Positions 260 to 41,289 of a stretch of DNA of 64,000 bases are shown in pieces. The DNA comes from Candidatus Moraniibacteriota bacterium. Lineage in GTDB: Bacteria; Patescibacteriota; Minisyncoccia; Moranbacterales; UBA9337. Within the stretch, counting starts at the first letter, position 1; the number at the start of each line of letters is the position of its first letter. The translations under genes and the position numbers were made by a program. The notes under the pieces are model-generated. The model saw nothing but the letters and a program-made list of their open reading frames with translations. It was not told the origin of the DNA and did not search any database. The stretch is taken from contig JAQVJM010000001.1 in assembly GCA_028695135.1 (NCBI GenBank), positions 13,718 through 77,717 of the forward strand, in the 5' to 3' direction.

Positions 260-348
260 TAGAACTGCGCTAAATTTTTTAGCAGCATTTTAATTTAATA
301 ACAAAAAACTTGGCGAACTTCGCCAAAGGTTTTGAATTTAATCCGGAA

Positions 349-765
349 ATGCCAACAATAAATCAGCTCAAAAGAAAATCGAGAAAATCAGTCAAGAAAA
401 AAACAAAGTCTCCGGCGATGTCTTTTGTTTTTAACACGATAAAAAACAGGCCGACTGAATCGCAGGGTCCTTTTAAAAGAGGAGTCTGCCTGAGCGTAAA
501 AACCACTACTCCTAAGAAACCCAATTCAGCTCTCAGGAAGATTGCCAGAGTTCGTCTTACGAATGGAATGGAAGTGACGGCATATATCCCGGGAATCGGA
601 CACAACCTGCAAGAGCACTCAATCGTGATGATCAGAGGCGGAAGAGTGAAGGACTTACCTGGAGTCAGATATCATGTGGTAAGGGGAATTCTGGATACGG
701 CCGGGGTGGACGGAAGGAAAAGAGGAAGGAGCAAGTATGGAGCCAAGAGACCTAAGGGAGAATAA
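349..765 (+). CDS. rpsL: 30S ribosomal protein S12
   Basis: Translation [10 protein letters not shown]...KRGVC...[10 protein letters not shown]...GHNLQEHS...[14 protein letters not shown] matches S12 signature motifs. Start trimmed from the ORF-track 310 to the ATG at 349 (MPTINQL). Confidence 0.95.
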
Positions 766-879
766 GACTGTCTTTACGAATTACTAATTTATTACGAATA
801 TACGAATGAAATAGTGATTCGAAAGAAATTAATTAAAAATTAGTATATTAGTATAAATTAGTAATTAGTAAAGAAACAC

Positions 880-1347
880 ATGCCAAGAAGAAAGAGAAAA
901 TATCCCAGTCATTGGAAAGCCGATCCAAAATACGGAAATATTTTATTAGGAAGGTTTATAGGTTCTATCATGCTTGACGGAAAAAGAAGCGTAGCCGAAG
1001 AGATAGTATATAAATCCTTCGATATTATCCATGAAAAAACCCAAAAGGGCGGACTGAACGTTTTTGAACAGGCGGTTAAAAACGTATCGCCTCTCTTGAT
1101 AGTTCGATCAAAAAGAGTCGGAGGAACTAATTATCAGGTTCCGGTTCAGGTTTCCGGAACCAAAAGGCAGGCGTTGGCAATGGCATGGATAAAAGAGGCT
1201 TGCAGGAAAAGAAAAGGCAAAAGCATGGCGGAGAAACTGGCAGATGAACTTTTGGAAGCTTCCGAAAAAACCGGGTCAGCCATAAAGAAGAAAGAAGATG
1301 TGCACAAGATGGCTGAATCCAACAAGGCTTTTGCTCACTTCGCGTAG
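880..1347 (+). CDS. rpsG: 30S ribosomal protein S7
   Basis: MPRRK...PKYGN..., 155 aa, canonical S7 N-terminus, located between rpsL and fusA (str operon order). Confidence 0.95.
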   Translation: MPRRKRKYPSHWKADPKYGNILLGRFIGSIMLDGKRSVAEEIVYKSFDIIHEKTQKGGLNVFEQAVKNVSPLLIVRSKRVGGTNYQVPVQVSGTKRQALAMAWIKEACRKRKGKSMAEKLADELLEASEKTGSAIKKKEDVHKMAESNKAFAHFA

Positions 1348-1477
1348 TAATCCGCTAAAATACAAATCTTATACGAATCTACAAATTTATAATTGCCATC
1401 AAATCTATGGGCACGAAGGCTCTAGCCATTTGTATATTGTAGCTAATTTGTAAATTTATAGGTATTAAGTAAAAAAC

Positions 1478-3598
1478 ATGGCCACCGACATAAAAAAATT
1501 AAGAAATATCGGAATTATAGCTCATATAGACGGAGGAAAAACTACTACCACCGAGCGTATTTTATTTTACACCGGAATTACTCACAAGATCGGAGAAGTT
1601 CATGAGGGAGAGGCCACTATGGATTGGATGGAGCAAGAGAGAGAAAGAGGAATCACTATTACCAGCGCGGCTACGACTTGTTTTTGGAAGGATCATCAGG
1701 TAAACATCATAGATACTCCCGGACACGTGGACTTCACGGTGGAAGTAGAGAGATCTCTTCGCGTTTTGGACGGCGCGGTGGTTATTTTTGACGGAAAAGA
1801 GGGAGTGGAGCCCCAGTCAGAGACTGTCTGGAGACAAGCCGATCGATATCATGTTCCTAGGTTTTGCTTCATTAACAAGATTGACAAAGAAGGAGCAGAT
1901 TTTGAAAATGCTTTGAAATCCATCCACAACAGACTTACTCCCAATGCCTTGGCCATACAAATGCCTATTGGGGAAAGGGACCAGTTCAAAGGGGTCATCG
2001 ATCTGGTAAAGATGAGATCCTATACTTTTGAAGGAGATATGGGAGAAAAAGTAATCGAGGGAGAAATCCCTGCAGAACTTTTGGAAGAAGCCAAAAGCAA
2101 AAGGGAAAAAATGGTTGAGAAGATAGCCGAAACGGATGATGCGCTGGTAGAAAAATATCTTGAGGGTCAGGAAATATCCGAAGAAGAGATCAAATCGGGT
2201 CTGCGAAAGGCGGTCATAGAAGTGAAGATCGTTCCGGTCATTATGGGAACAGCCTTGAGAAATAAAGGCGTGCAGCTTCTCTTGGATGCCGTGGTGGATT
2301 ACCTGCCCTCTCCTTTGGATCTGCCTCCGGTAAAAGGAGAAAATGTCAAAACCGGAGAGGAAGTGGAAATCAATCCTTCGGCGGAAGAGCCTTTTGCAGC
2401 GTTGGCCTTTAAAATAGCAGCCGATCCTTTTGTGGGACAGCTTACTTTTTTCAGAATTTATTCAGGATCGGTAAAAGCTGGATCATATATTTTAAATTCG
2501 ACCAAAGGAGAAAAAGAGAGAATCGGCAGGATTTTAAGAATGCATTCAAATCATCGCGAGGAAATAGAGGAACTTGGAGTGGGAGAGATCGGCGCGCTGG
2601 TCGGCCTTAAAAATACTACCACCGGGGACACTCTTTGCGACCAGGATAGGCCGGTGATACTGGAAAAAATGACATTTCCGGAGCCGGTTATCGATATTGC
2701 CATTGAGCCGAAAACAAAAGCTGATCAAGAAAAAATGGGCTTGGCTCTCAAAAAGCTGGCGGAAGAAGATCCGACTTTTAGGGTGAGAAGCGATGAAGAA
2801 ACCGGACAGACCATCATTTCGGGAATGGGGGAATTGCATTTAGATGTTTTGGTGGACAGGATGAAAAGGGAATTCAAGGTAGAAGCTAACGTAGGCAAGC
2901 CCCAGGTAGCTTATAGAGAGACTATCAGATCTTCCAAGGAAGCGGAAGGAAAATATATCAAGCAATCGGGAGGACGAGGACAATACGGACATTGTTGGGT
3001 CAGGATTGAACCTCTGGTCAAAGAAGCCGTTAAGGAAGAAGAAGGAAAGGAAAAAGAGGAAGAAAAAATATTCGAATTCGCAAATGAAATAAAAGGAGGA
3101 GCGATTCCTCAAGAATTTATCCCTCACATCGAAAAAGGAATAAAAGAAGCGATGGGCAACGGAATTTTAGCCGGATTTCCGATGGTTGACGTCAAGGCTA
3201 CTCTTTATGACGGAAGTTATCATGATGTGGACTCGTCTGAGGCGGCTTTTAAGATTGCCGGTTCCATGGCTTTCAAGGCGGCGGCCAGGGAGGCTAACCC
3301 GGTTCTTCTCGAGCCGATAATGAAAGTGGTGGTAACTGTTCCGGAACAATACATGGGAGATGTGGTTGGAGACATAAACTCAAAGAGAGGAATCATAAAA
3401 GAAATAAATGACAGAGGAGAGGGTACCGCTATGGTCAAGGAGATAGAAGCGGAAATTCCCTTAGCTTCCATGTTCGGTTACGCCACTCAACTCAGAAGCA
3501 TGACCCAGGGAAGAGCAAGCTACTATATGGAATTTGAAAAATATTCCGAAGTGCCTAATAATATAGCCCAAGAAATAATATCAGGAGATAAAAAATAA
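1478..3598 (+). CDS. fusA: Elongation factor G
   Basis: N-terminal [16 protein letters not shown]-domain, DTPGHVDF, 706 aa, conserved str operon position; short acidic insertion ([11 protein letters not shown]) before the domain [11 protein letters not shown] motif. Confidence 0.95.
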
Positions 3599-3650
3599 TT
3601 TTTTCAGGCCAAGCCGGCTAAAAAAATTTCATAATTCTGAAATTCAGCCC

Positions 3651-3685
3651 TTGACAGTTGACAAAAAAAGATAGGATGCTACTAT
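3651..3685 (+). promoter_or_regulatory. Putative tuf promoter (tandem TTGACA -35 boxes at 3651/3658, 16-nt spacer, TACTAT -10 at 3680-3685)
   Basis: cccTTGACAgTTGACAaaaaaagataggatgcTACTATgg in the fusA-tuf spacer; followed by two small leader hairpins (tagcacttgtcagtgcta; gcgaaagtggattttctttcgc). Confidence 0.5.
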
Positions 3686-3794
3686 GGCCTAGTAGCACTT
3701 GTCAGTGCTATTGTTTGCAATTTTATTTTACAATAATTAGTAAAAAACATAATAAAAATTTGCGAAAGTGGATTTTCTTTCGCGCGAAAATTTT

Positions 3795-4985
3795 ATGGCA
3801 GAAAAATTTCAAAGAACTAAGCCACATGTAAATGTGGGAACGATCGGCCATGTCGATCATGGCAAGACAACCCTTACGGCTGCGATACTCAAAGTGTTGA
3901 GCTTTAAAGGTTGGGCGTCGGCCAAAGCGGTTTCTGATATCGATAATGCTCCTGAGGAAAAGGAGAGAGGTGTTACCATTGCAACCGCTCACTGCGAATA
4001 TGAATCGGAAAAAAGACATTATGCCCATGTGGATTGCCCGGGGCATGCCGATTATATTAAAAACATGATTACCGGAGCGGCTCAGATGGACGGAGCGATC
4101 CTAGTTGTCAGTGCGACTGACGGACCCATGCCTCAGACAAGAGAGCATATCCTTTTGGCCAAGCAAGTGGGAGTTCCAAATATAGTAGTCTTTATAAATA
4201 AGGTTGATATGGTGGATGATCCGGAACTGATTGATCTGGTTGAGGAAGAAGTGAAAGAGCTTCTTTCCAAATATGAATTCGACGGAGAAAACGCTTCTAT
4301 AATAAGAGGTTCCGCTCTTAAGGCGCTTGAATCATCCAGCGCTGACGATGAAGCAGCTAAACCGATTTTTGATTTGATAAAGGCTTTGGATGAAAAAATT
4401 CCCGAACCTAAAAGAGACACTGAGAAACCTCTACTTATGCCTATTGAAGATATCTTTTCGATTGAAGGAAGAGGAACTGTGGCTACGGGAAGAATTGAAA
4501 GGGGCGTTATAAACTTAAACGATGAAATAGAAATAGTCGGACTTAGAGACACGCAAAAAACGACTGTTACCGGAATTGAAATGTTTAACAAACAACTGGA
4601 CAAAGGAGAAGCTGGAGATAATGCCGGAGTTCTTCTTCGCGGAACTAAAAAAGAGGACATAGAGAGAGGGCAGGTCATTGCAGCTCCCGGATCGATTACC
4701 CCGCATACTGAATTTGAGGGAGAAGTTTACGTTCTCACCAAAGAAGAAGGCGGAAGGCATACTCCTTTTTTCAAGGGATATAAGCCCCAATTCTACATCC
4801 GAACCACTGATGTTACCGGAGAAGTCGAGCTTCCCGAGGGGACAGAGATGGTTATGCCGGGGGACACTGTTAATTTAAAAATAAAACTTTCTTCCCATGT
4901 CGCCATGGAGGATGGAATGAGATTTGCCATTCGCGAGGGAGGAAGAACTGTAGGCGCCGGTATCGTTACTAAAATCATCAAATAA
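3795..4985 (+). CDS. tuf: Elongation factor Tu
   Basis: [31 protein letters not shown]..., [12 protein letters not shown]; start trimmed to the ATG at 3795. Confidence 0.97.
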
Positions 4986-5081
4986 ATTTGAGCGAATATA
5001 ATCCTGCTCTTTTTGAAGGGCAGGACGATTATCCCCTCAAAATCGGGATAAAGTAATTTATTGCCAGATCTTGTTACAAAA

Positions 5082-5405
5082 ATGGTTAAAAAAGAAGAAG
5101 GACAATCAAGGATCAGAATAAAAATCAAGGCTTACGACAATAAAGTCATTGATCAATCTGCCAAGAAAATAATCGACACAGCGATGCGTTCGGGAGCCGA
5201 AGTTTCCGGTCCGATTCCGTTGCCTACGGAAATCCATAAGACAACCGTTAATAAATCAACTTTTGTGCACAAAAACGCTCGCGAGCAATTTGAAATGAGA
5301 GTGCATAAGCGGTTGATAGATATTTTAAATCCGAAACCAAAGACTATAGACGATTTGACCAGCCTTGATCTGCCGGCGGGTGTTGACATCGAAGTTAAGA
5401 TGTAG
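5082..5405 (+). CDS. rpsJ: 30S ribosomal protein S10
   Basis: [24 protein letters not shown]... typical S10; start inferred at MVKKEEG (5082). Confidence 0.9.
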
Positions 5406-5658
5406 TAGATTTAATAAGAAAATACAACTAGTTAAAGTCCCCATCTCTTGAAAAGAGATGCGAGATACTAAGCTAGCCAGGTGGTACCAAAACTATTTTA
5501 GTTTTTTACTGGCTCTTATCGACCAGTTTTTTTATTTGAATCAGTTTTAGAGATTATCCCGCAACCGATTATAAGAAATTATCTGAAAATCCAGATCCTC
5601 ATTTGTAGAATCGCCTGCGGCTTAATCAGAGTAAATATTTAGATTTTAGATGAAATAG

Positions 5659-5707
5659 GTGCGGGATGCTCATTTTGTAGCTGCTCGCTCCACTCGTAGA
5701 CAAAATG
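5659..5707 (+). promoter_or_regulatory. Conserved leader element GTGCGGGATGCTyATTTT...CTCGCTC upstream of rplC, with a hairpin (cattttgt/acaaaatg, 5671-5707) sequestering the rplC start codon
   Basis: Near-identical motif recurs upstream of rplO (15116-15172). The 8-bp stem's 3' arm contains the rplC ATG (5705-5707); no Shine-Dalgarno sequence present. Confidence 0.4.
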
Positions 5708-6277
5708 AGAAAATTTATACTGGGAAAAAAGATAGGAATGACGACTGTTTATGACAAGGACAAGGGAGCTTTGAATGTTACCTTGATTGAATGCGTTCCT
5801 AATAAGGTGTCCCTTATCAGAAGTGAGGATAAGGATGGATATTTCGCCATTCAATTGAGCATGGAAAAATCCAAGAAGGATGAATTCAAAAAAGAGTTCA
5901 GAGTTTCCAAAGAAGAAGTTGGCTCTTTTAAGGAAGGGGGAGAAATCACATTGGATAAATTCGAGTTGGAGGAGAGAGTGCGCGTTTCCGGGGTGGCAAA
6001 ATCCAAGGGATTCCAGGGCGTTATGAAAAGGCATGGATTTCACGGATCTCCATCTAGCCATGGGCACAGACATGATCATAGGGCGCCTGGCTCTATAGGT
6101 CCGGGATATCCGCAACATGTTTTGAAGGGCAGGAAAATGGCGGGAAGAATGGGAGGAAAAAGAGCGACTACTAAAAATTTAAAGATTGCCCTTATCGACA
6201 GAGAAAATAATATTGTAGGTGTTAGAGGTCCTGTTCCGGGAGTAAATGGGAGAATAGTTGAAATATTTTGTAAATAG
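5705..6277 (+). CDS. rplC: 50S ribosomal protein L3
   Basis: 190 aa; KIGMTTVYD..., FQGVMKRHGF typical L3; S10-operon order. Confidence 0.93.
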   Translation: MRKFILGKKIGMTTVYDKDKGALNVTLIECVPNKVSLIRSEDKDGYFAIQLSMEKSKKDEFKKEFRVSKEEVGSFKEGGEITLDKFELEERVRVSGVAKSKGFQGVMKRHGFHGSPSSHGHRHDHRAPGSIGPGYPQHVLKGRKMAGRMGGKRATTKNLKIALIDRENNIVGVRGPVPGVNGRIVEIFCK

Positions 6278-6279
6278 TT

Positions 6280-6906
6280 ATGAAAATAGCAGTTTATAAT
6301 TTGGAAGGAAAAAAACTGAAAGATATGGAATTATCTGAAGATGTTTTTGGTGTTGAAAAAAATGAATTTCTTTTGCACCAGGTTTATGTAGCTAAAAAAG
6401 CCAACCGGAGAAAGCCGATTGCGCATACCAAAAACAGAGGAGAGGTGGCAGGCTCAGGAATAAAGCCCTGGAGACAGAAAGGGACCGGCAGAGCGAGAGT
6501 GGGATCAGTAAGAACTCCGGTTTGGAAAGGCGGAGGAATAGTTTTCGGACCGACCAAAGAAAGAAATTTCAGCAAGAAAGTCAACAATAGGGCCAATCGA
6601 AAAGCCATAAAGATGGCTCTCAGTGAGAAAGCGAAAAAAGGCAATATGATCGTGGTCGACAGTTTCAAGCTAAAGGAGAAAAAGACCAAAGAATTTGCCA
6701 AAGGAATGGATAATCTGAAATTGAAAGGAAAAATTTTACTGAGTCTGGGAGAAAAGGAAAAGGATGCGTATCTGTATTCAAGAAACATAAAAAACATGAA
6801 ATGCATCCCCGCAAAGATTATAAACGTGATGGATTTGCTCGATTATTCAAAATTACTGATCAGCGAGGACTCGATCAAATACCTGGAAAAAAAGTATAAT
6901 AGATAA
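6280..6906 (+). CDS. rplD: 50S ribosomal protein L4
   Basis: 208 aa; ...KPWRQKGTGRARVGSVRTPVWKGGGIVFGP canonical L4 motif. Confidence 0.93.
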   Translation: MKIAVYNLEGKKLKDMELSEDVFGVEKNEFLLHQVYVAKKANRRKPIAHTKNRGEVAGSGIKPWRQKGTGRARVGSVRTPVWKGGGIVFGPTKERNFSKKVNNRANRKAIKMALSEKAKKGNMIVVDSFKLKEKKTKEFAKGMDNLKLKGKILLSLGEKEKDAYLYSRNIKNMKCIPAKIINVMDLLDYSKLLISEDSIKYLEKKYNR

Positions 6907-6911
6907 ATCGT

Positions 6912-7349
6912 ATGAGTTTATTCGGAAAAAAAGGAGACAATAAAAAGGAAGAAAAAGAAGTTTCTGATAAAAAAGCGGAAGGAAGCGAAGTTAAGATTGA
7001 GAAAGGAGAGGATAAAGAGATTTCTGCCCCAAAAAAATCCAAAAAGATTTTGAATAAAGAATTGGATGGAAGTTTGGCATATGAAACTGTGGTAAAGCCA
7101 TGGATAACGGAGAAGACCCACAGTTTAATGTCAGATGGAAAATATGTTTTCAAGATAAGGAAAGGGATAGATAAAATCCGGATTAAAGAGGCGATCGAAA
7201 GCCTGTACGGAGTGGAGATTGAAAAAATCAACATGGTTAACATCCCTCAAAAAAGAAGAAGATTCGGAAGAATTGAGGGAAAGAAGTCAGGTGTTAAAAA
7301 AGCGATCATCACATTGAGAGAAGGAGAAAGCATAGAATTTTTCGAGTAG
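6912..7349 (+). CDS. rplW: 50S ribosomal protein L23 with ~50-aa Lys/Glu-rich N-terminal extension
   Basis: C-terminal 95 aa match L23 (YETVVKPWITEKTHSL...FKI...KIRIKEAIESLYGVEIEKINMVN); N-terminal KKEEKEVSDKKAEG... low-complexity extension. Confidence 0.88.
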   Translation: MSLFGKKGDNKKEEKEVSDKKAEGSEVKIEKGEDKEISAPKKSKKILNKELDGSLAYETVVKPWITEKTHSLMSDGKYVFKIRKGIDKIRIKEAIESLYGVEIEKINMVNIPQKRRRFGRIEGKKSGVKKAIITLREGESIEFFE

Positions 7350-7451
7350 ATCATGCGGATAAGGATATGAATCGAATCCGAATGATATTCCGATGCAATA
7401 AATATGATTCGTATCACATAACTCGCATATAATTAGAATCAAAATTAGCAT

Positions 7452-7778
7452 ATGTCAAGAAGTTTAAAGAAAGGTCCTTATGTAGATGAAAGATTGATGA
7501 AAAAAATCAAGGACAAACAACCTGGTGACAAGAAGCCGATCAGGACATGGTCGAGAGCTTGCACTATTGTGCCGGAGATGGTGGGTTTTGTATTAGAAGT
7601 GCATAATGGAAGAAAATTTGTCGAAGTCAGTGTTATTGAAGAAATGGTCGGCCATAAATTGGGAGAATTTGCCCACACCAGAACATTCTTGAGACACGGA
7701 GGAAAGATCCAGAAGGAATTAGAATTAGCGGCCAAACAGAAAGAAATCGATTCCGCCAAGGCTGCCAAGACAGAATAA
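7452..7778 (+). CDS. rpsS: 30S ribosomal protein S19
   Basis: [19 protein letters not shown]...[19 protein letters not shown]...HNGRKFVEV...[16 protein letters not shown], canonical S19; note it precedes rplV and rplB (non-canonical order). Confidence 0.93.
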
Positions 7779-7806
7779 TCCCTAAGAAATTTCATATAAA
7801 TTAGCA

Positions 7807-7857
7807 GTTCGCCCGCTTGCGATCCATTCGCATAAGCGTCGCGGGCAGATGAGAATA
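7807..7857 (+). repeat. Copy 1 of a ~50-bp direct repeat / leader hairpin element (gcccgc...cgcataagcg...gcgggc) immediately upstream of rplV
   Basis: agttcgcccgcttgcgatccattcgcataagcgtcgcgggcagatgagaata vs copy 2 at 8550-8600 (~85% identity); both end 3 nt before the start codon; forms nested stem gcccgc/gcgggc. Confidence 0.7.
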
Positions 7858-7859
7858 AC

Positions 7860-8411
7860 ATGAAAGTCAAAGTTAAGGCAAAATTGAATAATTTGAGAAT
7901 ATCCCCGAGAAAGGTAAGGATTTCAGCCGATATGGTAAGAAATTGCAACGCAGGCGAGGCAATCTTTAGATTGAAAAATACGATTAAAAAATCCAACGAG
8001 CCTCTGAAAAAATTAATCGAGAGCGCAATCGCCAATGCAAAAGACAGATATGATCTGAAAACGGATGAATTGAAAATAGCAGATATCCAAGTGGGAGAAG
8101 GAATGACCCTGAAGCGCTGGACCCCTAGAGCCTATGGAAGGGCGACCGAGATTTTGAAAAGAAGTTCTCATATTTATCTGACTCTCGAGGCGGAAACGGC
8201 CGAAGAGAAAAAAAAGAAGAGCAAGAAGAAAGAGGTGAAAATTGCGGATGATAAAACAGAGGGAAAAATCGAAACGGTGGAGAAAGTGGATGTCAAAAAA
8301 GACAAGATAACCGGGGATATTAAAAAAGGACATTTTGAAGTAGAAGGCAAGAGGAAAGAAAGCAGGGAAAAAGGCTGGACAAAGAAGATATTTAAGAGAA
8401 AGTCGATGTAA
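7860..8411 (+). CDS. rplV: 50S ribosomal protein L22 with ~70-aa Lys/Glu-rich C-terminal extension
   Basis: N-terminal 110 aa match L22 (AKLNNLRISPRKVR...IESAIANA...LKIADIQVGEGMTLKRWTPRAYGRA); C-terminal EEKKKKSKKKEVK... extension. Confidence 0.9.
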   Translation: MKVKVKAKLNNLRISPRKVRISADMVRNCNAGEAIFRLKNTIKKSNEPLKKLIESAIANAKDRYDLKTDELKIADIQVGEGMTLKRWTPRAYGRATEILKRSSHIYLTLEAETAEEKKKKSKKKEVKIADDKTEGKIETVEKVDVKKDKITGDIKKGHFEVEGKRKESREKGWTKKIFKRKSM

Positions 8412-8549
8412 ATAGCTACTGCGAAGTACGAACTTATACGGATTTACGAACAAGCGCTGGAAGAATTTAAATAATTTATTTTTAATACAAGAATATAATT
8501 TGAATAAGAATTACATTTGTACATAATTTTGCGGTTCTATATGAGTCGT

Positions 8550-8600
8550 AATTCGCCCGCCTGCAATGCATTCGCATAAGCGCCGCGGGCAGGCATAGAA
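8550..8600 (+). repeat. Copy 2 of the ~50-bp direct repeat / leader hairpin element, immediately upstream of rplB
   Basis: aattcgcccgcctgcaatgcattcgcataagcgccgcgggcaggcatagaata; see copy 1. Confidence 0.7.
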
Positions 8601-8604
8601 TAGT

Positions 8605-9432
8605 ATGGCGATCAAAGTTTATAAAAAGAATAATGCGGGACGGAGAAATATGTCCGTAGTCAAGCCCGAAGGGCTTTCGAAAAATAAGCCGGAGAAATCT
8701 CTGCTAGTTGGACGCGGTAAAAAATCCGGACGTTCTGGAGGAAAGATTTCCGTTCGTCATAAAGGAGGCGGTCATAAGAAAAAATACAGGTTGGTGGATT
8801 TCAAGCAGGATAAATTTGGAATTCCCGGAAAAGTCAAATCTATCGAAAAAGATCCTTTCCGTTCAGCGTTGATAGCCCTGGTTGTTTATGCCGACGGAGA
8901 GAAAAGATATGTTCTAGCTACAGAAGGATTAAAGGAAGGAAAAGAAATAATATCAGATAAAAAGACGCCCTTTAAGAAAGGAAATAGGATGCAGATAAAA
9001 AATATTCCTGTCGGCACCATAATTTCCAATGTGGAAATGGCAATGGATGCGGGCGGCCAGCTGGCCAGGAGTGCCGGTTCGAGCGTTGTGCTTATGGGTA
9101 GTGAAGGGAGAATGGCTCAACTTAAGCTTTCTTCGGGAGAGATAAGGCTGGTAAGCAATGAATGTTATGCGACTATAGGACAAGTAAGCAATTTCGAACA
9201 CGGATCTGTCAGAGTGGGAAAAGCCGGAAGAAAAAGGTGGATGGGAATAAGGCCAGCAGTCAGAGGAACAGCTATGAATCCCGTTGACCATCCGCATGGA
9301 GGAGGAGAAGGAGTTCAAGGAATCGGACTGAAATATCCCAAAACTCCGTGGGGAAAGATCGCACTGGGAAAAAAGACCAGAAAGAAGAAAAAGCATAGTA
9401 ATAAATTTATAGTGAAGAGAAAGAAGAAATAA
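8605..9432 (+). CDS. rplB: 50S ribosomal protein L2
   Basis: 275 aa; [10 protein letters not shown]..., GRNNSG-like [24 protein letters not shown], ...HPHGGGEG; located after rplV instead of before rpsS. Confidence 0.95.
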
Positions 9433-9526
9433 CTGTTGAAATTGTGATAATTGTTGAAGATGTTACAGTAAAATAAATTAGGACAAGCAAAGCGATATAA
9501 CAATTTGGACAACTAGAACAATTAAT

Positions 9527-10168
9527 ATGGGACAAAAAGTCAATCCAAAAGGATTCAGAATCGGAATAACAACCACCTGGCGCTCCAGATGGTTCGGGGG
9601 TAAAGATTATAGAAATAATCTCAAGGAAGATGTAAGCATACGCAAGGGGGTTATGGAAAAATGGAAGCAGGCTTCTATAGCCGATGTTGAAATTGAAAGG
9701 TTCAATAACGAAATACAGATTATTATTTTGACTTCTCGTCCCGGAGTGCTTATCGGAAGAGGAGGAACAGGTGTTGAGGATATCCAGAATTTTGTGAAAA
9801 AAAATTATTTTTCCGGAAAGAAAACCGCCATCAAGATAGAGGTTAAGGAAGTTAAAGATTTCGAATCCAACGCTTCCATTGTCGCCCAGCAAGTGGCCGA
9901 ACAGCTGGAAAAAAGGATGCCTTTCAGAAGAGTTTTAAAAACCACGCTGGATCAAGTTATGGGGAATAAGACAGTCAAAGGCGCCAAAGTGGAAGTATCG
10001 GGAAGATTGGGAGGAGCGGAAATGTCTAGGACCGAATGGCTTTCCAGAGGAACTATTCCTCTTCAGACAATGAGAGCGGATATAGATTTCGCCACAGCGA
10101 CTGCTAACACCACCTACGGTTCAATCGGAGTAAAGGCATGGATTTACAAGGGAGAAATATTTGAATAA
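9527..10168 (+). CDS. rpsC: 30S ribosomal protein S3
   Basis: MGQKVNPKGFRIGITTTWRSRWF..., KH and S3-C domains, 213 aa. Confidence 0.95.
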   Translation: MGQKVNPKGFRIGITTTWRSRWFGGKDYRNNLKEDVSIRKGVMEKWKQASIADVEIERFNNEIQIIILTSRPGVLIGRGGTGVEDIQNFVKKNYFSGKKTAIKIEVKEVKDFESNASIVAQQVAEQLEKRMPFRRVLKTTLDQVMGNKTVKGAKVEVSGRLGGAEMSRTEWLSRGTIPLQTMRADIDFATATANTTYGSIGVKAWIYKGEIFE

Positions 10169-10249
10169 TCTCGTAAAGCATAACGTATAGCGCATAACGC
10201 AATAAATAAAAATGATTTGCGTTTCACGCTCCACGTTTTACGAAATAAT

Positions 10250-10663
10250 ATGCTATTGATGCCAAGAAAAGTTAAATATAGGAAAATGCACAGAGGCGGA
10301 GCCATAAGAGGAAAAGTTTCTCGGGGCGGATCCGTAAGTTTTGGCAGTTACGGACTCAAGGCTATGACGGGGGGGTTGATTTCTGCCAGGCAAATTGAGG
10401 CTGCCAGGCGGGCAATGACGAGACATATCCAGAGAGGCGGAAAAATATGGATAAGAATATTTCCCGATAAGCCAATGACCAAAAAAGGAGACGAGACTCC
10501 TATGGGTAAGGGTAAAGGAGCAGTGGATCATTATGTGGCCAAGATTAAGCCTGGGAAAGTTATGTTTGAGATGGATGGCATAGAAAGAGATGTAGCCCAA
10601 AAAGCTATGGAGCTGGCTTCGCATAAATTAAGCGTCAGAACCAAATTTATAGAAAAGAATTAA
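10250..10663 (+). CDS. rplP: 50S ribosomal protein L16
   Basis: [16 protein letters not shown]... canonical L16 N-terminus; start trimmed to the ATG at 10250. Confidence 0.93.
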
Positions 10664-10697
10664 TAAATCAGCTTATAGCTTTTAGGATAATAATTAC

Positions 10698-10886
10698 ATG
10701 AAAGCCAAGGAATTAAGAGAAAAAAATATCAATGAATTGAAGCGCGAGCTCGAAGAGAAAAAAGAAATTGTGAGACAATTGCGGTTTGATATTTCGCTTA
10801 AGCAGGTTAAAGATCACCGAGAGATCAGAAATACAAAAAGAGAGATAGCCAGACTGATGACTATCATAAAGGAAAGAAGCGAATAA
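10698..10886 (+). CDS. rpmC: 50S ribosomal protein L29
   Basis: 62 aa, MKAKELREKNINELKRELEEKKEIVRQLRFD... typical L29. Confidence 0.9.
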   Translation: MKAKELREKNINELKRELEEKKEIVRQLRFDISLKQVKDHREIRNTKREIARLMTIIKERSE

Positions 10887-10910
10887 TTTTTTAAATAATA
10901 ATTTTTAGAT

Positions 10911-11177
10911 ATGGAAAAAGAAGTGAAAAAAGGAGAAAAAATCCATAATGGAGCAGGAAAGAAAAAAATTACCGGAACAGTTATCAGCGATAAGATGGAG
11001 AAGACCATAGTAGTAGCTGTCGATATTTTTAAGACTCATCCTAAATATTTGAAGAAGTATAAATCCACCAAGAACTATAAAGTTCATGATGAGAAGAATA
11101 AATACAAAGTCGGCGATAAAGTTGAATTTACAAACTCCAAGCCGATCAGTAAGGGTAAGAGGTTTATTGTTTTATAA
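10911..11177 (+). CDS. rpsQ: 30S ribosomal protein S17
   Basis: 88 aa; ...KKITGTVISDKMEKTIVVAV...HPKY.K....K...HDE typical S17. Confidence 0.9.
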   Translation: MEKEVKKGEKIHNGAGKKKITGTVISDKMEKTIVVAVDIFKTHPKYLKKYKSTKNYKVHDEKNKYKVGDKVEFTNSKPISKGKRFIVL

Positions 11178-11335
11178 AATCCCTTCCTGTCCGCAACGTT
11201 TATGCGCGTGCGTTGCAGGAGGGCGAAGTACGAATTTTTAAGGATGCACGAATGGGTATAAGGAAATAAGGGGAATCATAATTTATACTAAATTATTCGT
11301 AAATTTGTATAAATTTGTAATCTATAGAGAATAGT

Positions 11336-11701
11336 ATGATACAAGCAGAGACACAATTGAAAGTAGCAGACAATTCTGGAGCAAAAATTATTGAATGCTT
11401 CAAGGTTTTAGGCGGATCTAGAAGGCGGTATGCTTATATAGGCGATATTATTGTCGCTTCGGTCAAAGTTTCCGAGCCGAGAGGCGCAGTCAAAAAAGGC
11501 GACAAGGTCAGAGCGGTTATTGTGAGACAGAAGAAAAATTTTAGGAGAAAGGATGGTTCATATATAAGATTCGATGAGAACGCGGCGGTGATAGTGGACG
11601 GGATGGAGCCCAAAGGCAGCCGAATTTTCGGTCCGATTGCCAGAGAAATAAAGGAGAAAGGATTTAATAAGATCGCATCCCTGGCAGTTGAGGTATTGTA
11701 G
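11336..11701 (+). CDS. rplN: 50S ribosomal protein L14
   Basis: [17 protein letters not shown]... canonical L14, 121 aa. Confidence 0.95.
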
Positions 11702-11753
11702 CTCCTGCATGCCGGTAGGCAGGTATAAATTCGTAATTTGTAGAGAATATAAT

Positions 11754-12065
11754 ATGAGGATTAAAAAGAGCGATAAAGTAAAAATAATTCACGGAAAAGA
11801 TTCAGGAAAAGAAGGCAAGGTGTTGCGTGTTTTTAAAAGTGAAGGGAAAGTGGTTGTAGAAGGAGCAAATATCGCCAAAAAACATACTCGGCCGAAAAAA
11901 GAAGGTCAAAAAGGACAAAGAGTAGAAGTCGCGATGCCGATCGATGTCTCTAATGTCATGCTGGTATGCCCTCACTGCGGTAAAGTGACTCGGATTGGCT
12001 ATAAGGCAACTGATGGAAAGAAAAGCAGGATATGCAAGAAATGCAAAAAAGAAATAATCAGCTAA
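11754..12065 (+). CDS. rplX: 50S ribosomal protein L24
   Basis: MRIKKSDKVKIIHGKDSGKEGKVLRV... (KOW motif); start trimmed to 11754. Confidence 0.92.
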   Translation: MRIKKSDKVKIIHGKDSGKEGKVLRVFKSEGKVVVEGANIAKKHTRPKKEGQKGQRVEVAMPIDVSNVMLVCPHCGKVTRIGYKATDGKKSRICKKCKKEIIS

Positions 12066-12069
12066 AATT

Positions 12070-12642
12070 ATGAAAATTACGAATATTAAAATTAAATATA
12101 AGGAAGAGGCGGTAGCTAAGCTTAAGGATAGATTCGGATACAAGAATATTTTTTCTGTTCCCAGAATAGAAAAGGTAGTGGTTAATTCAGGAATCGGACG
12201 CTTTGAAAAAGAGAATGAAAAGATAAAAGATATAGTGGAAACCTTCAGAATGATTGCCGGGCAGAATCCCATTATGGCTAAAGCTCGAAAATCCATTTCC
12301 GGATTCAAGGTAAGGCAAGGCGCAGATGTTGGAGTGAAAGTTACATTAAGAGGAAAAAGAATGTGGGATTTTATAGATAAGATGGTGAACATTACTTTTC
12401 CGAGAACCAGGGATTTCCAAGGAATCAAATTAAGCAGCATCAGTTCCGAAGGGGATCTTAACCTGGGGATAAAAGAGCAGATAGTTTTTCCCGAGATAAC
12501 TCCGGAAGAAGTGAGGCATATTTTCAGTTTGCAGATAAATGTAAAGACTACCGCCAAGACCGCAGAAGAAGGGGAGGCTTTGTTCAGAGCGCTGGGATTT
12601 CCTCTAGTAGAAAAAAATAGTTTATATAGAATAAAAGATTAA
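12070..12642 (+). CDS. rplE: 50S ribosomal protein L5
   Basis: 190 aa; ...[16 protein letters not shown]..., ...FPEI... typical L5. Confidence 0.93.
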
Positions 12643-12646
12643 TTTT

Positions 12647-12832
12647 ATGGCAAAAACATCAGTGATAGCCAAGGCTAAAAAAACTCCTAAATTTTCCACC
12701 CGAAAAGTGAGACGTTGCTGGAGATGCGGAAGGAAGCGGGGATATATGAGGAAATTCGACATTTGCAGAATTTGTTTCCGCGAATTGGCAAGCAAAGGAG
12801 AAATTCCGGGAGTCAAGAAGAGCAGCTGGTAA
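12647..12832 (+). CDS. rpsZ: 30S ribosomal protein S14 type Z (zinc-binding)
   Basis: 61 aa with [20 protein letters not shown] (two CxxC pairs) typical of S14-Z. Confidence 0.9.
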
Positions 12833-12904
12833 AAAACATGTAACCTATAACGCATAACGTGGATCGTTTCACGCTTCACGATATGCGATTTACGACAACA
12901 AAGT

Positions 12905-13312
12905 ATGTTAGATCCAATTAGCGATATGTTAACAAGAATAAGAAATGCTCAGAAATCGGGTCATGCCGAGGTGTTTTTTCCTGCTTCAAAGTTCAAAGAG
13001 TCCATAATTAAGATACTTATGAAAAAGGGATTTGTAAACGATATGGATAAAATTGAGGGGAAGAGTTTCGACACGCTTAAGCTTTTTTTGAAATATGAAA
13101 GGGAAGAAAATTCCAGCAGATTGAGACCGGCTATCAATGAGATAAAAAGGATCAGCAAAGAAGGTCAAAGGATCTATGTGGACAGTAAGGGCATCAGAAA
13201 AGTTAAAAATGGGCGCGGGGTTTTGATCGTTTCCACTTCTCAGGGAGTAATGAGCGGAGAAGAAGCTAGAAAAAAAGGAGTGGGAGGAGAAATAATCTGC
13301 GAAGTTTGGTAA
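12905..13312 (+). CDS. rpsH: 30S ribosomal protein S8
   Basis: MLDPISDMLTRIRNAQ... canonical S8 start; 135 aa. Confidence 0.93.
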   Translation: MLDPISDMLTRIRNAQKSGHAEVFFPASKFKESIIKILMKKGFVNDMDKIEGKSFDTLKLFLKYEREENSSRLRPAINEIKRISKEGQRIYVDSKGIRKVKNGRGVLIVSTSQGVMSGEEARKKGVGGEIICEVW

Positions 13313-13383
13313 ATTAATCATATAGCGCGTAGCGCACGACCTGGAACGTTCCGGGTTATGCGATATGCGATTCGAGATAAAAT

Positions 13384-13926
13384 ATGTCTAGAATAGGAAA
13401 AAAGCCAATTGAAATACCTTCCGGAGTGCAGATAGAAATAAAGGATAACAGGATAAAAGTTTCCGGTCCCAAGGGTTCTTTGGAGATGATGATTGTTTAT
13501 GAAGTAAAGGTAGAATTGAAGGATAACGCTGTTATTGTAGATCGCAAGCAAAAAAGCAAGAGAGCTTCCGCTATGTGGGGAACGACCAATAGGCTCATAT
13601 CCAATATGATAAAAGGCGTGACTGAAGGTTTTGAAAAGAGGCTTGAGCTTAACGGCGTAGGCTACAGAATGGCGGTTAAGGGAAATCAGCTCGATCTGGC
13701 TCTGGGATTTTCTCATCCTGTTTTGATCGATATTCCGGAAGGAATTACGGCCAAGATAGAGGAAGGAGCCTTATCCATATCGGGAGCGGACAAGCAAGCG
13801 GTCGGACAATTTGCCGCTGAAGTGAGGGGGCTTAAGCCGGTTGAGCCTTACAAGGGAAAAGGATTTAAATATTCCGATGAGATAGTTCGAAGGAAGGAAG
13901 GCAAGAAGGCTGTTGCCGGAGAATAA
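13384..13926 (+). CDS. rplF: 50S ribosomal protein L6
   Basis: MSRIGKKPIEIPSGVQIEIKDNRIKVSGPKGSLE... canonical L6. Confidence 0.93.
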   Translation: MSRIGKKPIEIPSGVQIEIKDNRIKVSGPKGSLEMMIVYEVKVELKDNAVIVDRKQKSKRASAMWGTTNRLISNMIKGVTEGFEKRLELNGVGYRMAVKGNQLDLALGFSHPVLIDIPEGITAKIEEGALSISGADKQAVGQFAAEVRGLKPVEPYKGKGFKYSDEIVRRKEGKKAVAGE

Positions 13927-14013
13927 AATAGTTAAAAGCAGACAGTTTGCAGTTCACATAAGATAATAAGAACCGTGAATCGCTGACTGATAATAACCAA
14001 GAACCAAAATATT

Positions 14014-14352
14014 ATGAGTAGAAATATCAATAGATTGCGCAGACAAAAAAGAATACGCGCCAAGGTTTCCGGCACTGTTCGAAAGCCTCGCCTATCCGTG
14101 TTCAAGAGCCTTACGGAAATGTATATACAGATCATCGATGATGAAAGCGGAAAAACAATCCTGAGCGCCAGCCTGAGCGAAGTCTCCAAGAAGAATAATT
14201 TGGAAGGTGCCAAAAAATTAGGAAAGCTTGTGGCCGAAAAATGCAAAAAAGCCAAGATAGAAGAGATAGTTTTTGATAGAGGGGGATATAAATATCACGG
14301 AAAAGTGAAAGCGGTGGCGGAAGAAGCGAGAAAGAGCGGGTTAAAATTTTAA
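14014..14352 (+). CDS. rplR: 50S ribosomal protein L18
   Basis: 112 aa; ...RLRRQKRIRAK..G...PRLSVFKS...YIQIIDDESGKTILSAS typical L18. Confidence 0.9.
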   Translation: MSRNINRLRRQKRIRAKVSGTVRKPRLSVFKSLTEMYIQIIDDESGKTILSASLSEVSKKNNLEGAKKLGKLVAEKCKKAKIEEIVFDRGGYKYHGKVKAVAEEARKSGLKF

Positions 14353-14470
14353 AAATCCACGAATTTACAAATCTGCTACAAATCTACAAATAAGATAATA
14401 TGTGATATAAAATGTCTAATTTGTATATATGTAAGAGATTTGTATATTTGCGGGGATAATTTCATATTTT

Positions 14471-14986
14471 ATGGATAAAGATAATAATAAATCGAGAAAA
14501 TTTAAATCTAGGAGGCCAAGAAGAGAAAAGCCTGAATTCGAGCAGAAGCTTTTGGATTTGGCCAGAGTTACTCGCGTGGTGAAAGGCGGACGCCGTTTCA
14601 GTTTTCGCGCCACGATGGTTATCGGTGATAGGAAAGGACGAGTGGGAGCAGGAGTGGGCAAAGGAACAGATGTTTCTATCGCGATCGGCAAAGCAGTCAA
14701 CGATGCTAAAAAGAACATGATAAGCATAGATGCGAGCCAAGGAACAATTTTTCATGACGTGAAAGCTAAACTGGGAAGCGCCAGAGTGATGCTTAAGCCG
14801 GCCAGGGAAGGACGCGGAATCGTGGCTGGAGGAGCGGTGAGAGCCGTTATTGATCTGGCGGGATTAAAAGATATCGTTTCCAAATCCCAAGGATCGGCCA
14901 ATAAGCTCAACGTGGCCAGGGCGACGGTCATGGCGCTCAAGGGAATCAAAGAGCCCGGGAAAGTATTAGAGAAAAAAGAGAAATAG
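14471..14986 (+). CDS. rpsE: 30S ribosomal protein S5
   Basis: ...LLDLARVTRVVKGGRRFSFRATMVIGDRKGRVGAGVGK... canonical S5. Confidence 0.93.
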   Translation: MDKDNNKSRKFKSRRPRREKPEFEQKLLDLARVTRVVKGGRRFSFRATMVIGDRKGRVGAGVGKGTDVSIAIGKAVNDAKKNMISIDASQGTIFHDVKAKLGSARVMLKPAREGRGIVAGGAVRAVIDLAGLKDIVSKSQGSANKLNVARATVMALKGIKEPGKVLEKKEK

Positions 14987-15169
14987 TCATTCGAGGCTTA
15001 CTCCATCCCGCAACTGGTTCCGAGAAGATCTGAAGGCAGGCGGAAGATATATCAAAGCGCCTTCACAAAGTTGCGGTTTGGAATTAATTTATATATAAAG
15101 ATCGGTCAGCGGATCAGTGCGGGATGCTTATTTTTATGGTCACTCGCTCTGCTCGCGGAAAAAAATGGC

Positions 15170-15697
15170 ATGCAGATACATGAATTAAAAGTTAAAGGCA
15201 AAAAGTCCCGCAAAAGGATCGGAAGAGGCGGGAAAAGAGGTACGTATTCGGGCAAAGGGATGAAGGGTCAAAAGGCCAGATCCGGAGGAAATGTCGATCC
15301 TCTCTTTGAAGGCGGACGGACAACGCTCATAGATAAGTTAAAGAAAGTTCGCGGATTTAAGGCTATTGTTGCCAAAAAGAGCGTGGTTAATCTGGAAATT
15401 ATCGACAAAAAGTTTAAAAATGGAGATACAGTAAGCTTAAATGCTCTCGTAGAAGCCGGAGCGGTTCAAAAGAGCAAAGCCGGAAGAGGAGTTAAAATTC
15501 TTGGGAATGGAAAATTGAAGAAAAAACTTTATATTGATAAAGAAATATTGTTATCGAAATCTGCCAAAGAAGCTATTGAGAAAGCCGGGGGTAGCATCGG
15601 CAAAAAATTGGCAAGCGGTAAGGAGAAAGGAAAAATGAAAGAGAAGCCGTCAGGCGAGCCGGCTAAAAAGACGGAGAAAAGAACAGCTAAAAAATAA
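15170..15697 (+). CDS. rplO: 50S ribosomal protein L15 with Lys-rich C-terminal tail
   Basis: MQIHELKVKGKKSRKRIGRGGKRGTYSGKGMKGQKARSG... canonical L15; start trimmed to the ATG at 15170. No rpmD (L30) gene between rpsE and rplO. Confidence 0.9.
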   Translation: MQIHELKVKGKKSRKRIGRGGKRGTYSGKGMKGQKARSGGNVDPLFEGGRTTLIDKLKKVRGFKAIVAKKSVVNLEIIDKKFKNGDTVSLNALVEAGAVQKSKAGRGVKILGNGKLKKKLYIDKEILLSKSAKEAIEKAGGSIGKKLASGKEKGKMKEKPSGEPAKKTEKRTAKK

Positions 15698-15703
15698 TTT
15701 CAG

Positions 15704-15734
15704 ACAGCCCTTAAATGGGCTGTTTTCTTGTTTT
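15704..15734 (+). terminator. Rho-independent terminator after rplO
   Basis: acagccc-ttaaat-gggctgt stem-loop followed by tttcttgtttt. Confidence 0.75.
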
Positions 15735-15746
15735 AAATACGAAATT

Positions 15747-15785
15747 AAACGGCCAAATCAATTAATTTAATTGATTTGGCCGTTT
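15747..15785. repeat. 39-bp perfect palindrome (19-bp arms, 1-nt centre): aaacggccaaatcaattaa-t-ttaattgatttggccgttt
   Basis: Exact reverse-complement arms read directly from the sequence; sits between the rplO terminator and the promoter of the next gene. Confidence 0.85.
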
Positions 15786-15803
15786 AATTCCGTCTTTTTC
15801 CGG

Positions 15804-34600: not shown

Positions 34601-36159
34601 GAATTTTTGGCAATTCAATCTGGTCTTTTACTACCTCACAGTATTTTGAAGATTCTGTGGAAGATGATGTGGAGAAGGAAGGTGGACCACTTTTCATTAA
34701 AATAGAAAAAATAAAGGATATAATTTCTAACTCCTTATCTATCTTAGTCAAGGTAGAAAATTATGACAAGAGAAATCTTAATTTCAAAGTGAGGATAAAA
34801 AACGTGGAAACAGGCGATACGGAAACCGTAAAAATTACGAAGAAAGTCAACAATGACGGAGAAACGACTTTAAAAATAGAAAATCTTCTTCCGGGAACGG
34901 AATATTCCTTCAGGGCGAAGGTTTCTGAGGAAGGCAAAGATGATTATTCGGATTATTCAAACAGCAGAAGAGCCACGACAGATGAAGAAAAATCGTCGAG
35001 AACATTATTTCTCGATTTAACTGATAGCTTTTCGGATTTTGCAGATAATGGTCCTGAAATTGGAGAAGAAATCTCATCTAATCCTATGATAACGCCGACA
35101 TTTCCTGGATCTTCTCCCCAAAGCGCTTTATCTAGAGAGGACAATTCCGATGTAATTTTTCATAAGAATGCCATGAGAGATTTTGTAGATGAAAATCCGG
35201 CTTTAGCAGGCGCCACAGTCGCTACGGGCTTGATAGCCGGAGCATCGGCGGCCGGAGCGGCTAGCGCAGCGTCTCTTCCCTTTTTCCCTCTTTTCCCCAA
35301 TACTTTGAGCAGAAGACTTTCTGACTTGTTTAAAATTCTTCCGATATTGGCTTCTTCCAAAAAAAGATTCGCTTTGCCCCTGAGGAGGAAAAAGAAGGAG
35401 AGATATTGGGGAGTTGTTTTTGATTCATTCACTAAACATCCCATAAAAAACGTAGGTGTTTTTCTTTTGGACAGAGAAAGGGAAAGGATTGTCGATCAGA
35501 CTGTTACTGACGATCAAGGTAGATATGGATTTCTCATATCCAAAGATGGTGAATATGAATTGATGATAAAGAAGAGCGGTTATAAAATTGAAATGAAGAA
35601 AAAAAAAGACAGACTCTACGGAAATCTTTATACCGGACCCCAATTTTTTGAAAGTAAGAATATCATAAAATTGAACATTTCTTTGAATTGCGAGGGCTTT
35701 GATTGGTCAAGATTTGCTGTCAAGGTGATCAATCAATATAATTCTTTTTCGGCAAAATTAGTCAAATATACATTGGATGTTTTTTTCGTGACTGGTTTTT
35801 CTTTCTCCACATACGCCGCCTTTATTTATCCAAGTACTATAAATATCATCATCTTGGCAGCCTATATCTTTTTTCTTGTTTATAGGATTATAAAGCGCAA
35901 TAAGAATCAGTTCGGGACTGTAACGAGCAAGGATACCGGCAAACCGCTCCCTTTCACCGTACTGGAAGTTTATGATCCTATGGCAAACCAGAGGATTGCC
36001 TTTACTGTCTCTGATATTCTGGGAAGATATTATTTGCTGATAAATAATGGAAGTTATATCCTTAAGGTGAAAGCGGTCAATACGGAAGGAGAAACTTTTG
36101 AGGGGCAGGATAAAATAAGCGTAGAAAACGGAGTATTGAAAGAAAGCATCTCAATTTGA
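31636..36159 (+). CDS. Giant secreted surface protein 2 (1507 aa)
   Basis: Signal peptide; ~13 DUF285-type 26-aa repeats; Cys-rich region; beta-propeller-like region; Ig-like (Big_5-like) domain; FN3-like domain; C-terminal TM/carboxypeptidase-regulatory-like module shared with protein 1. DUF285 repeat unit is [25 protein letters not shown]; Ig-like region [12 protein letters not shown]...[10 protein letters not shown] is homologous to protein 1; the C-terminal module aligns along its length with the protein 1 C-terminus. Confidence 0.75.
32086..33091 (+). repeat. ~13 tandem 78-bp coding repeats (DUF285-like [20 protein letters not shown] units)
   Basis: Near-identical 78-bp units (e.g. tcctttaatcaggatat(t/c)gg(c/g)tc(a/g)tgg(a/g)a...) visible directly in the nucleotide sequence. 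Confidence 0.8.
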
Positions 36160-41106: not shown

Positions 41107-41121
41107 ATTTAATATTATTCC

Positions 41122-41274: not shown

Positions 41275-41289
41275 AAATCCGATAATTTT

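Follow-up and report, generated by a model that had tools for sequence, protein, structure and literature searches.

The REP, BIME and REPIN sequences of proteobacteria are mobilised by RAYT Y1 transposases, and some REP sequences have been shown to act as 3'-exonuclease barriers that stabilise the mRNA upstream of them. Repeats of the ERIC/IRU, Correia, RUP and BOX kinds are transcribed within operons and form long hairpins, and related genomes differ in how many copies they carry; the foldback (FB) transposons of eukaryotes are of kilobase scale. The genomes of the CPR/Patescibacteria are about 1 Mb in size and very gene-dense. The TAACTGA repeats of Beggiatoaceae, Cyanobacteria and Bacteroidetes (compare the cyanobacterial STRR) are intergenic tandem heptamers located near start codons (PMC4679880). 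They also occur inside ribosomal-protein operons and in genomes or regions that are poor in Shine-Dalgarno (SD) sequences; no function has been assigned to them, and their phyletic distribution is patchy (PMC4679880). Such arrays are almost always direct, there being one inverted set among 170 in BOGUAY (PMC4679880). The E. coli operators for S7 (rpsL-rpsG) and S8 (rplE) are single-copy mimics of rRNA sites, each at one fixed junction and of narrow distribution (PMC3616713). S7 binds its mRNA in the rpsL-rpsG spacer (PMC3616713), and the preliminary description of the present locus was thus mistaken in placing that site between rpsG and fusA.

In this report, we examine two related spacers, rpsG-fusA and rplR-rpsE, in the ribosomal-protein cluster of a Candidatus Moranbacteria genome. 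On balance, we think it probable that both hold diverged copies of a dispersed CPR/Patescibacteria foldback repeat of the MITE or REP kind, which is widespread in those bacteria, is passively co-transcribed with its host genes and is no ribosomal-protein operator. Members of the family are non-coding foldbacks of ~80-120 bp, whose arms of 30-40 nt are 75-92% complementary. One arm contains four TACNAAT heptamers (unit, 0-1 nt, unit, 3-4 nt, unit, 1 nt, unit), the opposite arm is the inverted heptamer array, and a variable loop lies between them. The spacing of the heptamers is irregular, at 7, 8 and 11 nt.

Like the REP, BIME and REPIN sequences, these copies are short, imperfect, multi-copy palindromes that are extragenic, often lie between co-directional genes and are co-transcribed. 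A REPIN is also a hairpin of ~70-110 nt made of two inverted halves, and the CTAC...GTAG ends of one TACNAAT subfamily recall the GTAG head of REP. However, the stems of the TACNAAT copies are AT-rich, whereas those of REP are GC-rich; the arm is a direct array of four heptamers with a periodic unpaired position, and is not itself a small palindrome; and no RAYT gene could be tied to the family. The likeness to MITEs and to the ERIC/IRU, Correia, RUP and BOX repeats resides in a non-coding length of about 100 bp, terminal inverted repeats and dispersal between genes, but in the TACNAAT element tandem heptamer words make up the entire arm, and neither a target-site duplication nor a parent insertion sequence was seen. 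The TAACTGA and STRR arrays are likewise tandem intergenic heptamers near starts, including those of ribosomal-protein operons; every TACNAAT copy, in contrast, is mirrored into a foldback, and the direct-only arrays found in the present genomes are of other unit types. With the S7 and S8 operators the element shares structured RNA in str/spc intercistronic spacers, but it is multi-copy and occupies many unrelated junctions. The likeness to FB transposons, with their long inverted arms of short tandem subrepeats around a short or variable middle, is architectural only. In the open-access literature, we found no description of the TACNAAT family in CPR/Patescibacteria. It belongs to a familiar class of bacterial repeats, as a new family or as a variant in architecture.

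The window (the whole stretch of 64,000 nucleotides that was analysed) has a G+C content of ~40%, and the closest relatives of its rplB product are found in Candidatus Moranbacteria and Parcubacteria MAGs, at 63-73% identity. The same DNA is present at 99.9-100% identity in an ENA assembly (a 141-kb contig), in GCA_028718005.1 and in the JGI metagenome 3300014206, and six strain-level contigs of the genome are 99.9-100% identical. The str/S10/spc ribosomal-protein cluster occupies bases 310-15697 of the + strand, as confirmed with Pfam. A good promoter match (231-259) precedes it and terminator-like hairpins (15702-15789) close it, so that the cluster looks like one long transcription unit; a second good promoter match lies before tuf. 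A scan of the window for sigma-70-like promoters gave 44 sites against 36±6.4 expected, which is no enrichment, and placed no high-scoring site on any element. The terminator scan listed none of the elements either, and a GC-rich stem followed by a U run is absent from all of them. An SD-like word within 20 nt upstream occurs in only 5 of 54 window genes, and the start regions are rich in A and U, which suggests SD-independent initiation in this organism. Some metagenome copies have 3' ends of the GTAGGA type; the idea of an element-borne Shine-Dalgarno sequence was dropped in light of that same count of SD-like words.

The preliminary description had labelled the two spacers correctly: by Pfam, S7 and EF-G flank 1348-1477, and L18 and S5 flank 14353-14470. 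It was also right that the two are related. Positions 1349-1386 and 14354-14391 are 82% identical across 38 nt, and 1352-1387, in the 5' half of the first element, forms an inverted cross-match with 14418-14453, in the 3' half of the second, at 81% complementarity. The local alignment of the whole spacers scores 41, whereas 2000 dinucleotide-preserving shuffles score 19.1±3.0 with a maximum of 40; the similarity therefore persists when it is set against shuffled AT-rich sequence, 0/2000 shuffles being as good. Further, the word TACAAATCTACAAAT (≤3 mismatches) was found at 14 places where 4.6±2.3 would be expected; 0/100 shuffles reach 14, and 12 of the 14 occurrences fall in the first 15 kb. 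A pattern for the four-unit architecture has its matches at precisely the two reported spacers, with 0 expected. An arm HMM trained solely on arms from other genomes finds both elements independently. A chance resemblance of AT-rich spacers would draw on their low G+C content (~20-25%) and on the folding of the rpsG-fusA copy, which as RNA is no better than that of its shuffles; against these alignment scores, motif counts and HMM matches, such a resemblance is vanishingly improbable.

The claim that each spacer folds into a long imperfect hairpin held at the level of DNA, where the arms match in 30 of 38 columns (element at 1348) and in 31 of 39 (element at 14353). At the level of RNA it held for one element only. 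The 14353-14470 spacer folds at -30.6 kcal/mol (z = -5.3), with 0/200 shuffles as good, but 1348-1477 folds at -20.8 kcal/mol (z = -1.3), a value equalled by 20/200 shuffles. By its folding energy the former is thus a good hairpin and the latter a decayed one. The element of the rpsG-fusA spacer spans 1348-1467 on the + strand, with a 5' arm at 1348-1386 (TACAAAT at 1361, TACGAAT at 1372, TACAAAT at 1380) and a 3' arm of the ATTTGTA type at 1428-1467; the arm HMM scores them at E=6.5e-4 (match at 1359-1389) and E=0.19, respectively. The element of the rplR-rpsE spacer spans 14357-14453 (+ strand). Its 5' arm (14357-14395) reads CACGAAT, T, TACAAAT, CTGC, TACAAAT, C, TACAAAT and has E=1.5e-5; its 3' arm (14415-14453) has E=1.2. 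Both belong to a CpG-decayed subtype (TACAAAT / ATTTGTA), and the element at 1348-1467 is a decayed copy.

When every spacer of the cluster is folded, many are seen to hold long imperfect hairpins built from units of 7-8 nt, the clearest of them at 771-874. Within the window there are at least four copies of the TACNAAT element: the two just described and those at 771-874 and 11228-11322. The best-preserved one is 771-874 (+ strand), in the rpsL-rpsG spacer. Its 5' arm (771-807) reads TCTT, TACGAAT, TACTAAT, TTAT, TACGAAT, A, TACGAAT, and its 3' arm (839-874) carries four ATTAGTA units; 33 of 36 arm columns are complementary, the fold reaches -29.2 kcal/mol (z = -7.1), and the arm HMM matches both strands (771-819, E=1.9e-10 on the + strand; 873-838, E=2.6e-5 on the - strand). 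The copy at 11228-11322 (+ strand), in the rpsQ-rplN spacer, has a degenerate 5' arm (~11228-11261, E=4.8), a 3' arm at 11283-11322 (HMM match 11321-11294, E=3.7e-3) and a fold of z = -2.1 on the + strand; a separate GC-rich hairpin (~11180-11224) precedes it. Just upstream of the window, after lepA, lies a fifth copy (L081:5227-5337, fold z = -3.2), and the genome has 4-6 copies in 73 kb.

The remaining arms and the positions 61922-61939 and 8427-8450 give weaker HMM signals. A half copy with a single arm, ACGAATTACGAACATACGCGGAATTGCGAATG, lies at 61928-61959 (+ strand; E=0.018) between ClpB-like and ComF-like genes, both on the minus strand, and belongs to direct-repeat family D8. A possible, strongly degenerate copy, which we regard as uncertain, is at 8421-8556 (+ strand) in the rplV-rplB spacer. 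It reads GCGAAGTACGAACTTATACGGATTTACGAAC ... GGTTCTATATGAGTCGTAATTCGC, its arms being separated by a long AT-rich insert; it has an arm-HMM match of only E=0.41 and a fold of z = -0.8, and forms a direct repeat with 11223-11252 (family D8). Two further + strand hairpins, at 12851-12887 (rpsN-rpsH spacer; unit CATAACG / CGATATG; fold z = -3.0) and 13326-13371 (rpsH-rplF spacer; related unit GCGYAKC / GCGATATGC; -27.7 kcal/mol, z = -4.4), are not matched by the arm HMM and are not in the TACNAAT family; the first is the same kind of object from outside that family.

The layout of the arms is common to 771-874 and 14357-14453, whereas 1348-1467 differs in having a degenerate outermost unit and TATAATT as its innermost one. 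Complementary, subfamily-specific ends reach 2-3 nt beyond the units (run 1.56 versus a null of 0.72±0.12). Aligning 23 copies drawn from many genomes allowed us to compare the conservation of the word with that of the pairing. Six fixed positions of the heptamer are almost invariant and are paired in 17-23 of the 23 copies. Position 4, by comparison, is mostly unpaired, in 15/23, 11/22, 8/20 and 6/23 copies across the four units, with six G·U pairs in addition at the fourth. All four centres are mismatched in some copies (L001:633, L166:7546 and the L122 element); in the last of these, four TACAAAT units stand opposite four ATTCGTA units. At position 4, agreement between units is higher within an arm (0.61) than across opposite arms (0.55; permutation p=0.016). 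Covariation of the hairpin, which the preliminary description proposed as a check, gave no compensatory support beyond the terminal pairs. Within genomes (the L009 and L011 copies) we found 0 compensatory pairs, the copies being too similar; across genomes covariation is modest and confined to two terminal pairs, which reflect subfamilies. The outermost of these is C-G (CTAC...GTAG) in nine aligned copies and U-A (TTAC...GTAA) in nine, the window copies being of the TTAC or CCAC type.

These observations bear directly on the main rival to a passively transcribed repeat, namely that the elements are host-functional intercistronic RNA hairpins that punctuate the polycistronic mRNA through RNase III-type processing, a 3'-exonuclease barrier or stop-start coupling. 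An RNA helix under selection in the sense strand would be expected to show wobble pairs, but there is no excess of them between the arms: 44 mismatches are of the G·U type and 74 of the A·C type, which lends no support to RNA-level selection via wobble pairs. The centre of the heptamer is unpaired in about half of the copies, and three of the four window copies fold about equally well in sense and antisense. The exception, which speaks for the rival, is 11228-11322, with -18.1 kcal/mol in sense and -9.7 kcal/mol in antisense. The decay of the 1348 copy to z = -1.3 again counts against it. Given neither wobble tolerance nor covariation at the variable positions, the selected object is probably not an RNA hairpin. 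The TAC-AAT word is kept on both strands, and the helix is not kept. A conserved word without a conserved helix points to a protein that reads the sequence, and the heptamers are probably protein-binding words. Ends composed of such arrayed sites would suit a MITE-like or REP-like repeat. The central mismatches, we infer, may keep the palindrome imperfect enough to be stable as DNA.

The near-invariance of these six positions is seen among genomes whose ribosomal proteins are only ~50-80% identical to those of the window. This fact, together with the symmetry of the motif on both strands, accords with another reading, that the arrays serve the host as DNA, for instance as sites for a nucleoid or segregation protein or as uptake-signal-like sequences for CPR competence. 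Yet the words come in tight clusters of eight and are not scattered over the genome, coding sequence contains hardly any of them, the units differ greatly from one relative to another, and no candidate protein was found. We judge this reading decidedly unlikely.

To place the family phyletically, we compared the window with rplB-anchored loci (denoted by L-numbers) from 14 related MAGs. The ribosomal-protein spacers of these relatives are likewise long and rich in hairpins. Copies of the TACGAAT/CGAAT type number seven in L009 (88-100% identity), six in L011 and at least six in L001, and identity within a genome is 85-100%. They reside in spacers that are non-orthologous to those of the window and that differ from genome to genome: rpsG-fusA, rplC-rplD and rpsS-rplV, among others, in L001; rplB-rpsS, rpsQ-rplN, rplX-rplE, rpsH-rplF and rplF-rplR, among others, in L009. 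Copies gain and lose 8-nt units; in L009 the chief difference between copies lies in 0-3 additional CTACGAAT units, placed at the top of the 5' arm. In L003, L004, L005 and L007, analogous foldbacks are built from quite different units, such as AACTAAC/GTTATAAGT and ACAGAAT. Such differences in position between genomes argue against the RNA-hairpin reading, whereas the construction of similar hairpins from unrelated units, in the same operon of other Moranbacteria, argues for it.

We also ran the HMM on 66 rplB loci from more distant organisms (1.02 Mb; for the most part Bacillota and Chloroflexota). It matched only two of these, L074 and L079, both from Patescibacteria and one of them from Saccharibacteria. 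The family thus appears restricted to the CPR in the sample examined, a restriction that would also suit a DNA-level role for the host. In the rpsJ-rplC spacer of the L074 MAG, a foldback of ~190 bp (L074:7981-8170) has (TACGAAT)x4 at each end, and its 45-nt centre is enclosed by additional arm sequence that is perfectly complementary. This foldback may represent a young or longer version of the TACNAAT element.

A scan of metagenomes with the exact four-unit pattern extended the comparison beyond ribosomal-protein loci. This pattern matches the window at 776-807 and 14359-14391, with 0 expected by chance, and it matches at least 120 metagenome contigs. After merging of arms, the matches listed comprise 132 elements, and all of the following counts refer to those matches. 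Genes of str/S10/spc adjoin only 14 of the 132, whereas 118 (~89%) lie elsewhere; one further metagenome locus has copies on both sides of rplJ. The 132 immediate neighbour proteins match 186 Pfam families, including pilus ATPases, glycosyltransferases, SHMT, ABC transporters, DnaJ, RecJ and RNase H, and only 10 of the 132 elements fall within putative ORFs. Of 94 spacers with an element, 80 lie between co-directional genes, and the baseline share among all neighbouring gene pairs on the same contigs is 81% (p=0.36); divergent and convergent spacers are thus occupied at the baseline rate, a further point against RNA punctuation. No match was present in 2.9 million viral contigs, so phage carriage was not seen there.

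Copies between so many unrelated genes mark the element as a repeat dispersed through genomes, as opposed to a site that controls ribosomal proteins. The suggestion of a lineage-specific autoregulatory operator common to the rpsG-fusA and rplR-rpsE junctions drew on two copies at ribosomal-protein junctions, and it can now add that the best window copy occupies the rpsL-rpsG spacer, which in E. coli is that of the S7 site (PMC3616713). However, the element occurs in at least four operon spacers and after lepA, the junctions differ between relatives, some 89% of the listed metagenome copies adjoin unrelated genes, the structure is not conserved, and the elements have no match to an Rfam leader or any other Rfam family at gathering thresholds or at E up to 5. 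The scatter without specific gene association in metagenomes and relatives is what would be expected if no operator were present, and we consider the operator highly improbable.

The varied neighbours and baseline orientation describe a general intergenic repeat in which ribosomal-protein clusters are over-represented, but not exclusive. By our estimate these clusters account for roughly 3% of gene junctions, against ~11% of the copies among the matches listed, and across 15 rplB-anchored loci long hairpins are found in 44/106 cluster spacers versus 12/57 outside. This enrichment of 2-4-fold, along with the analogous hairpins made from other units, could reflect selection for a hairpin as such. 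The reading of the elements as functional RNA hairpins is further favoured by the presence of strong hairpins within one transcription unit and without terminator features, and by their placement: the element usually starts 0-6 nt past the upstream stop codon, and the window copies end 6-16 nt before the next start codon. We hold this reading to be unlikely, though a serious competitor, and it retains that standing because ribosomal-protein operons are enriched and because foldback families of unrelated sequence occur in the same spacers.

An important question is whether the TACNAAT element moves. The alternative offered in the preliminary description, a mobile intergenic repeat, was borne out as far as the sequence data allow: the element is multi-copy, near-identical within a genome, and variable in position and in unit number. 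Among the 12-nt sequences on either side of 84 arm matches (where a palindromic copy may count twice, once per strand), no consistent direct repeat betrays a target-site duplication, although the ends are too ill-defined to exclude one of 2 nt. The loci contained no pair of close contigs with and without an element that would give an empty and a filled site. Neither an autonomous relative nor a linked transposase was found in the sampled loci. A search with an approximate query, an IS608 TnpA sequence, identified two ORFs for IS200/IS605-like Y1 transposases in ~1 Mb of loci (L011:287-745 and L189:9410-9742). Both are flanked by unrelated GC-rich hairpins, and no link to IS200/IS605 or RAYT elements was seen in these loci. 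Y1 transposases are therefore present in these CPR genomes, but unlinked to the TACNAAT repeat.

The dispersed repeat that we favour would, we infer, spread as mobile DNA of the MITE or REP kind or as recombinationally copied DNA, and the protein that propagates it would bind the heptamers as repeated words. Within operons such as str, S10 and spc, the element would merely be co-transcribed and fold on itself. Self-folding would keep the upstream stop codon and the AU-rich, SD-less start region close together and unobstructed. The free last 6-16 nt before the start, combined with the near absence of SD sequences, make it likely that the hairpin is tolerated. A more elaborate scheme may also be put forward, in which the TACNAAT arrays are sites for a CPR-specific nucleic-acid-binding protein and, with the foldback, form a lineage-wide, domesticated punctuation of operon transcripts (processing, stabilisation or stop-start coupling) in organisms without SD-led initiation. 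Ribosomal-protein operons would be its main clients, and lineages with different unit words would have cognate proteins to suit. We offer this scheme as speculation and think it quite doubtful.

Several other structured or repeated features were noted in the same DNA. In the rpsJ-rplC spacer, 5425-5535 carries the conserved motif CUAGUUAAAGUCC-(variable hairpin)-GGAUACUCAACUAG(CCAG), after which come a stem and a U run. The window and ten further Moranbacteria/Parcubacteria loci share this motif upstream of rplC; its inner stem covaries (three pairs with double changes), and it has no Rfam match; we regard it as a candidate for a previously undescribed leader or attenuator of rplC-rplD. A second multi-copy structured element, UAUCCCGCA...CGCCUGCGGCUU...UGCGGGAUGCUCAUUUUGUAGCUACUCGC...CUCGUAGACAAA, is present at ~5555-5704 and also lacks an Rfam match. 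It lies in different ribosomal-protein spacers in different genomes (L001:11811-11985, L002:7055-7178, L009:11866-12170 and, in L003, 10832-10988, 11935-12103 and 13530-13670).

A 41-nt direct repeat, 90% identical between 7808-7848 and 8552-8592, forms a GC-rich hairpin directly upstream of both rplV and rplB. The local gene order, L23-S19-L22-L2-S3, is non-canonical and common to the window and L006, and the repeat may mark a gene-order rearrangement. Tandem octamer arrays of the CATAAC type, with no inverted partner, occupy 10169-10216 and 60085-60180 in the window and L009:12816-12865 (CGCATAAC x5); the rpsC-rplP spacer holds the arrays of both the window (10169-10216) and L009. Farther along, the 327-nt spacer between two minus-strand genes contains three copies of a GC-rich hairpin (..GCCTACAACGGTGTTGGGTGCCCGTTGCAGGC..) at 41059-41289, from a different repeat family. 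Finally, two very large ORFs, 25914-31484 (1856 aa) and 31636-36159 (1507 aa), contain tandem repeats, whose period is ~189-195 nt at 27504-28732 and 75 nt at 32102-33092.

Recognition of the TACNAAT family averts the mis-annotation of such spacers as ribosomal-protein leaders or small RNAs. Further, the inverted TACNAAT x4 array is a sequence marker by which CPR contigs might be binned or typed. A gene-dense genome here gives up ~100 nt to a repeat at many of the junctions in the operon that it expresses most highly, and a heptamer with a free central base raises the question of its reader, be it a transposase-like mobiliser or a host factor. If it is true that these hairpins shape the fate of operon mRNA, they would provide a first clue to post-transcriptional organisation in uncultured, SD-poor bacteria.
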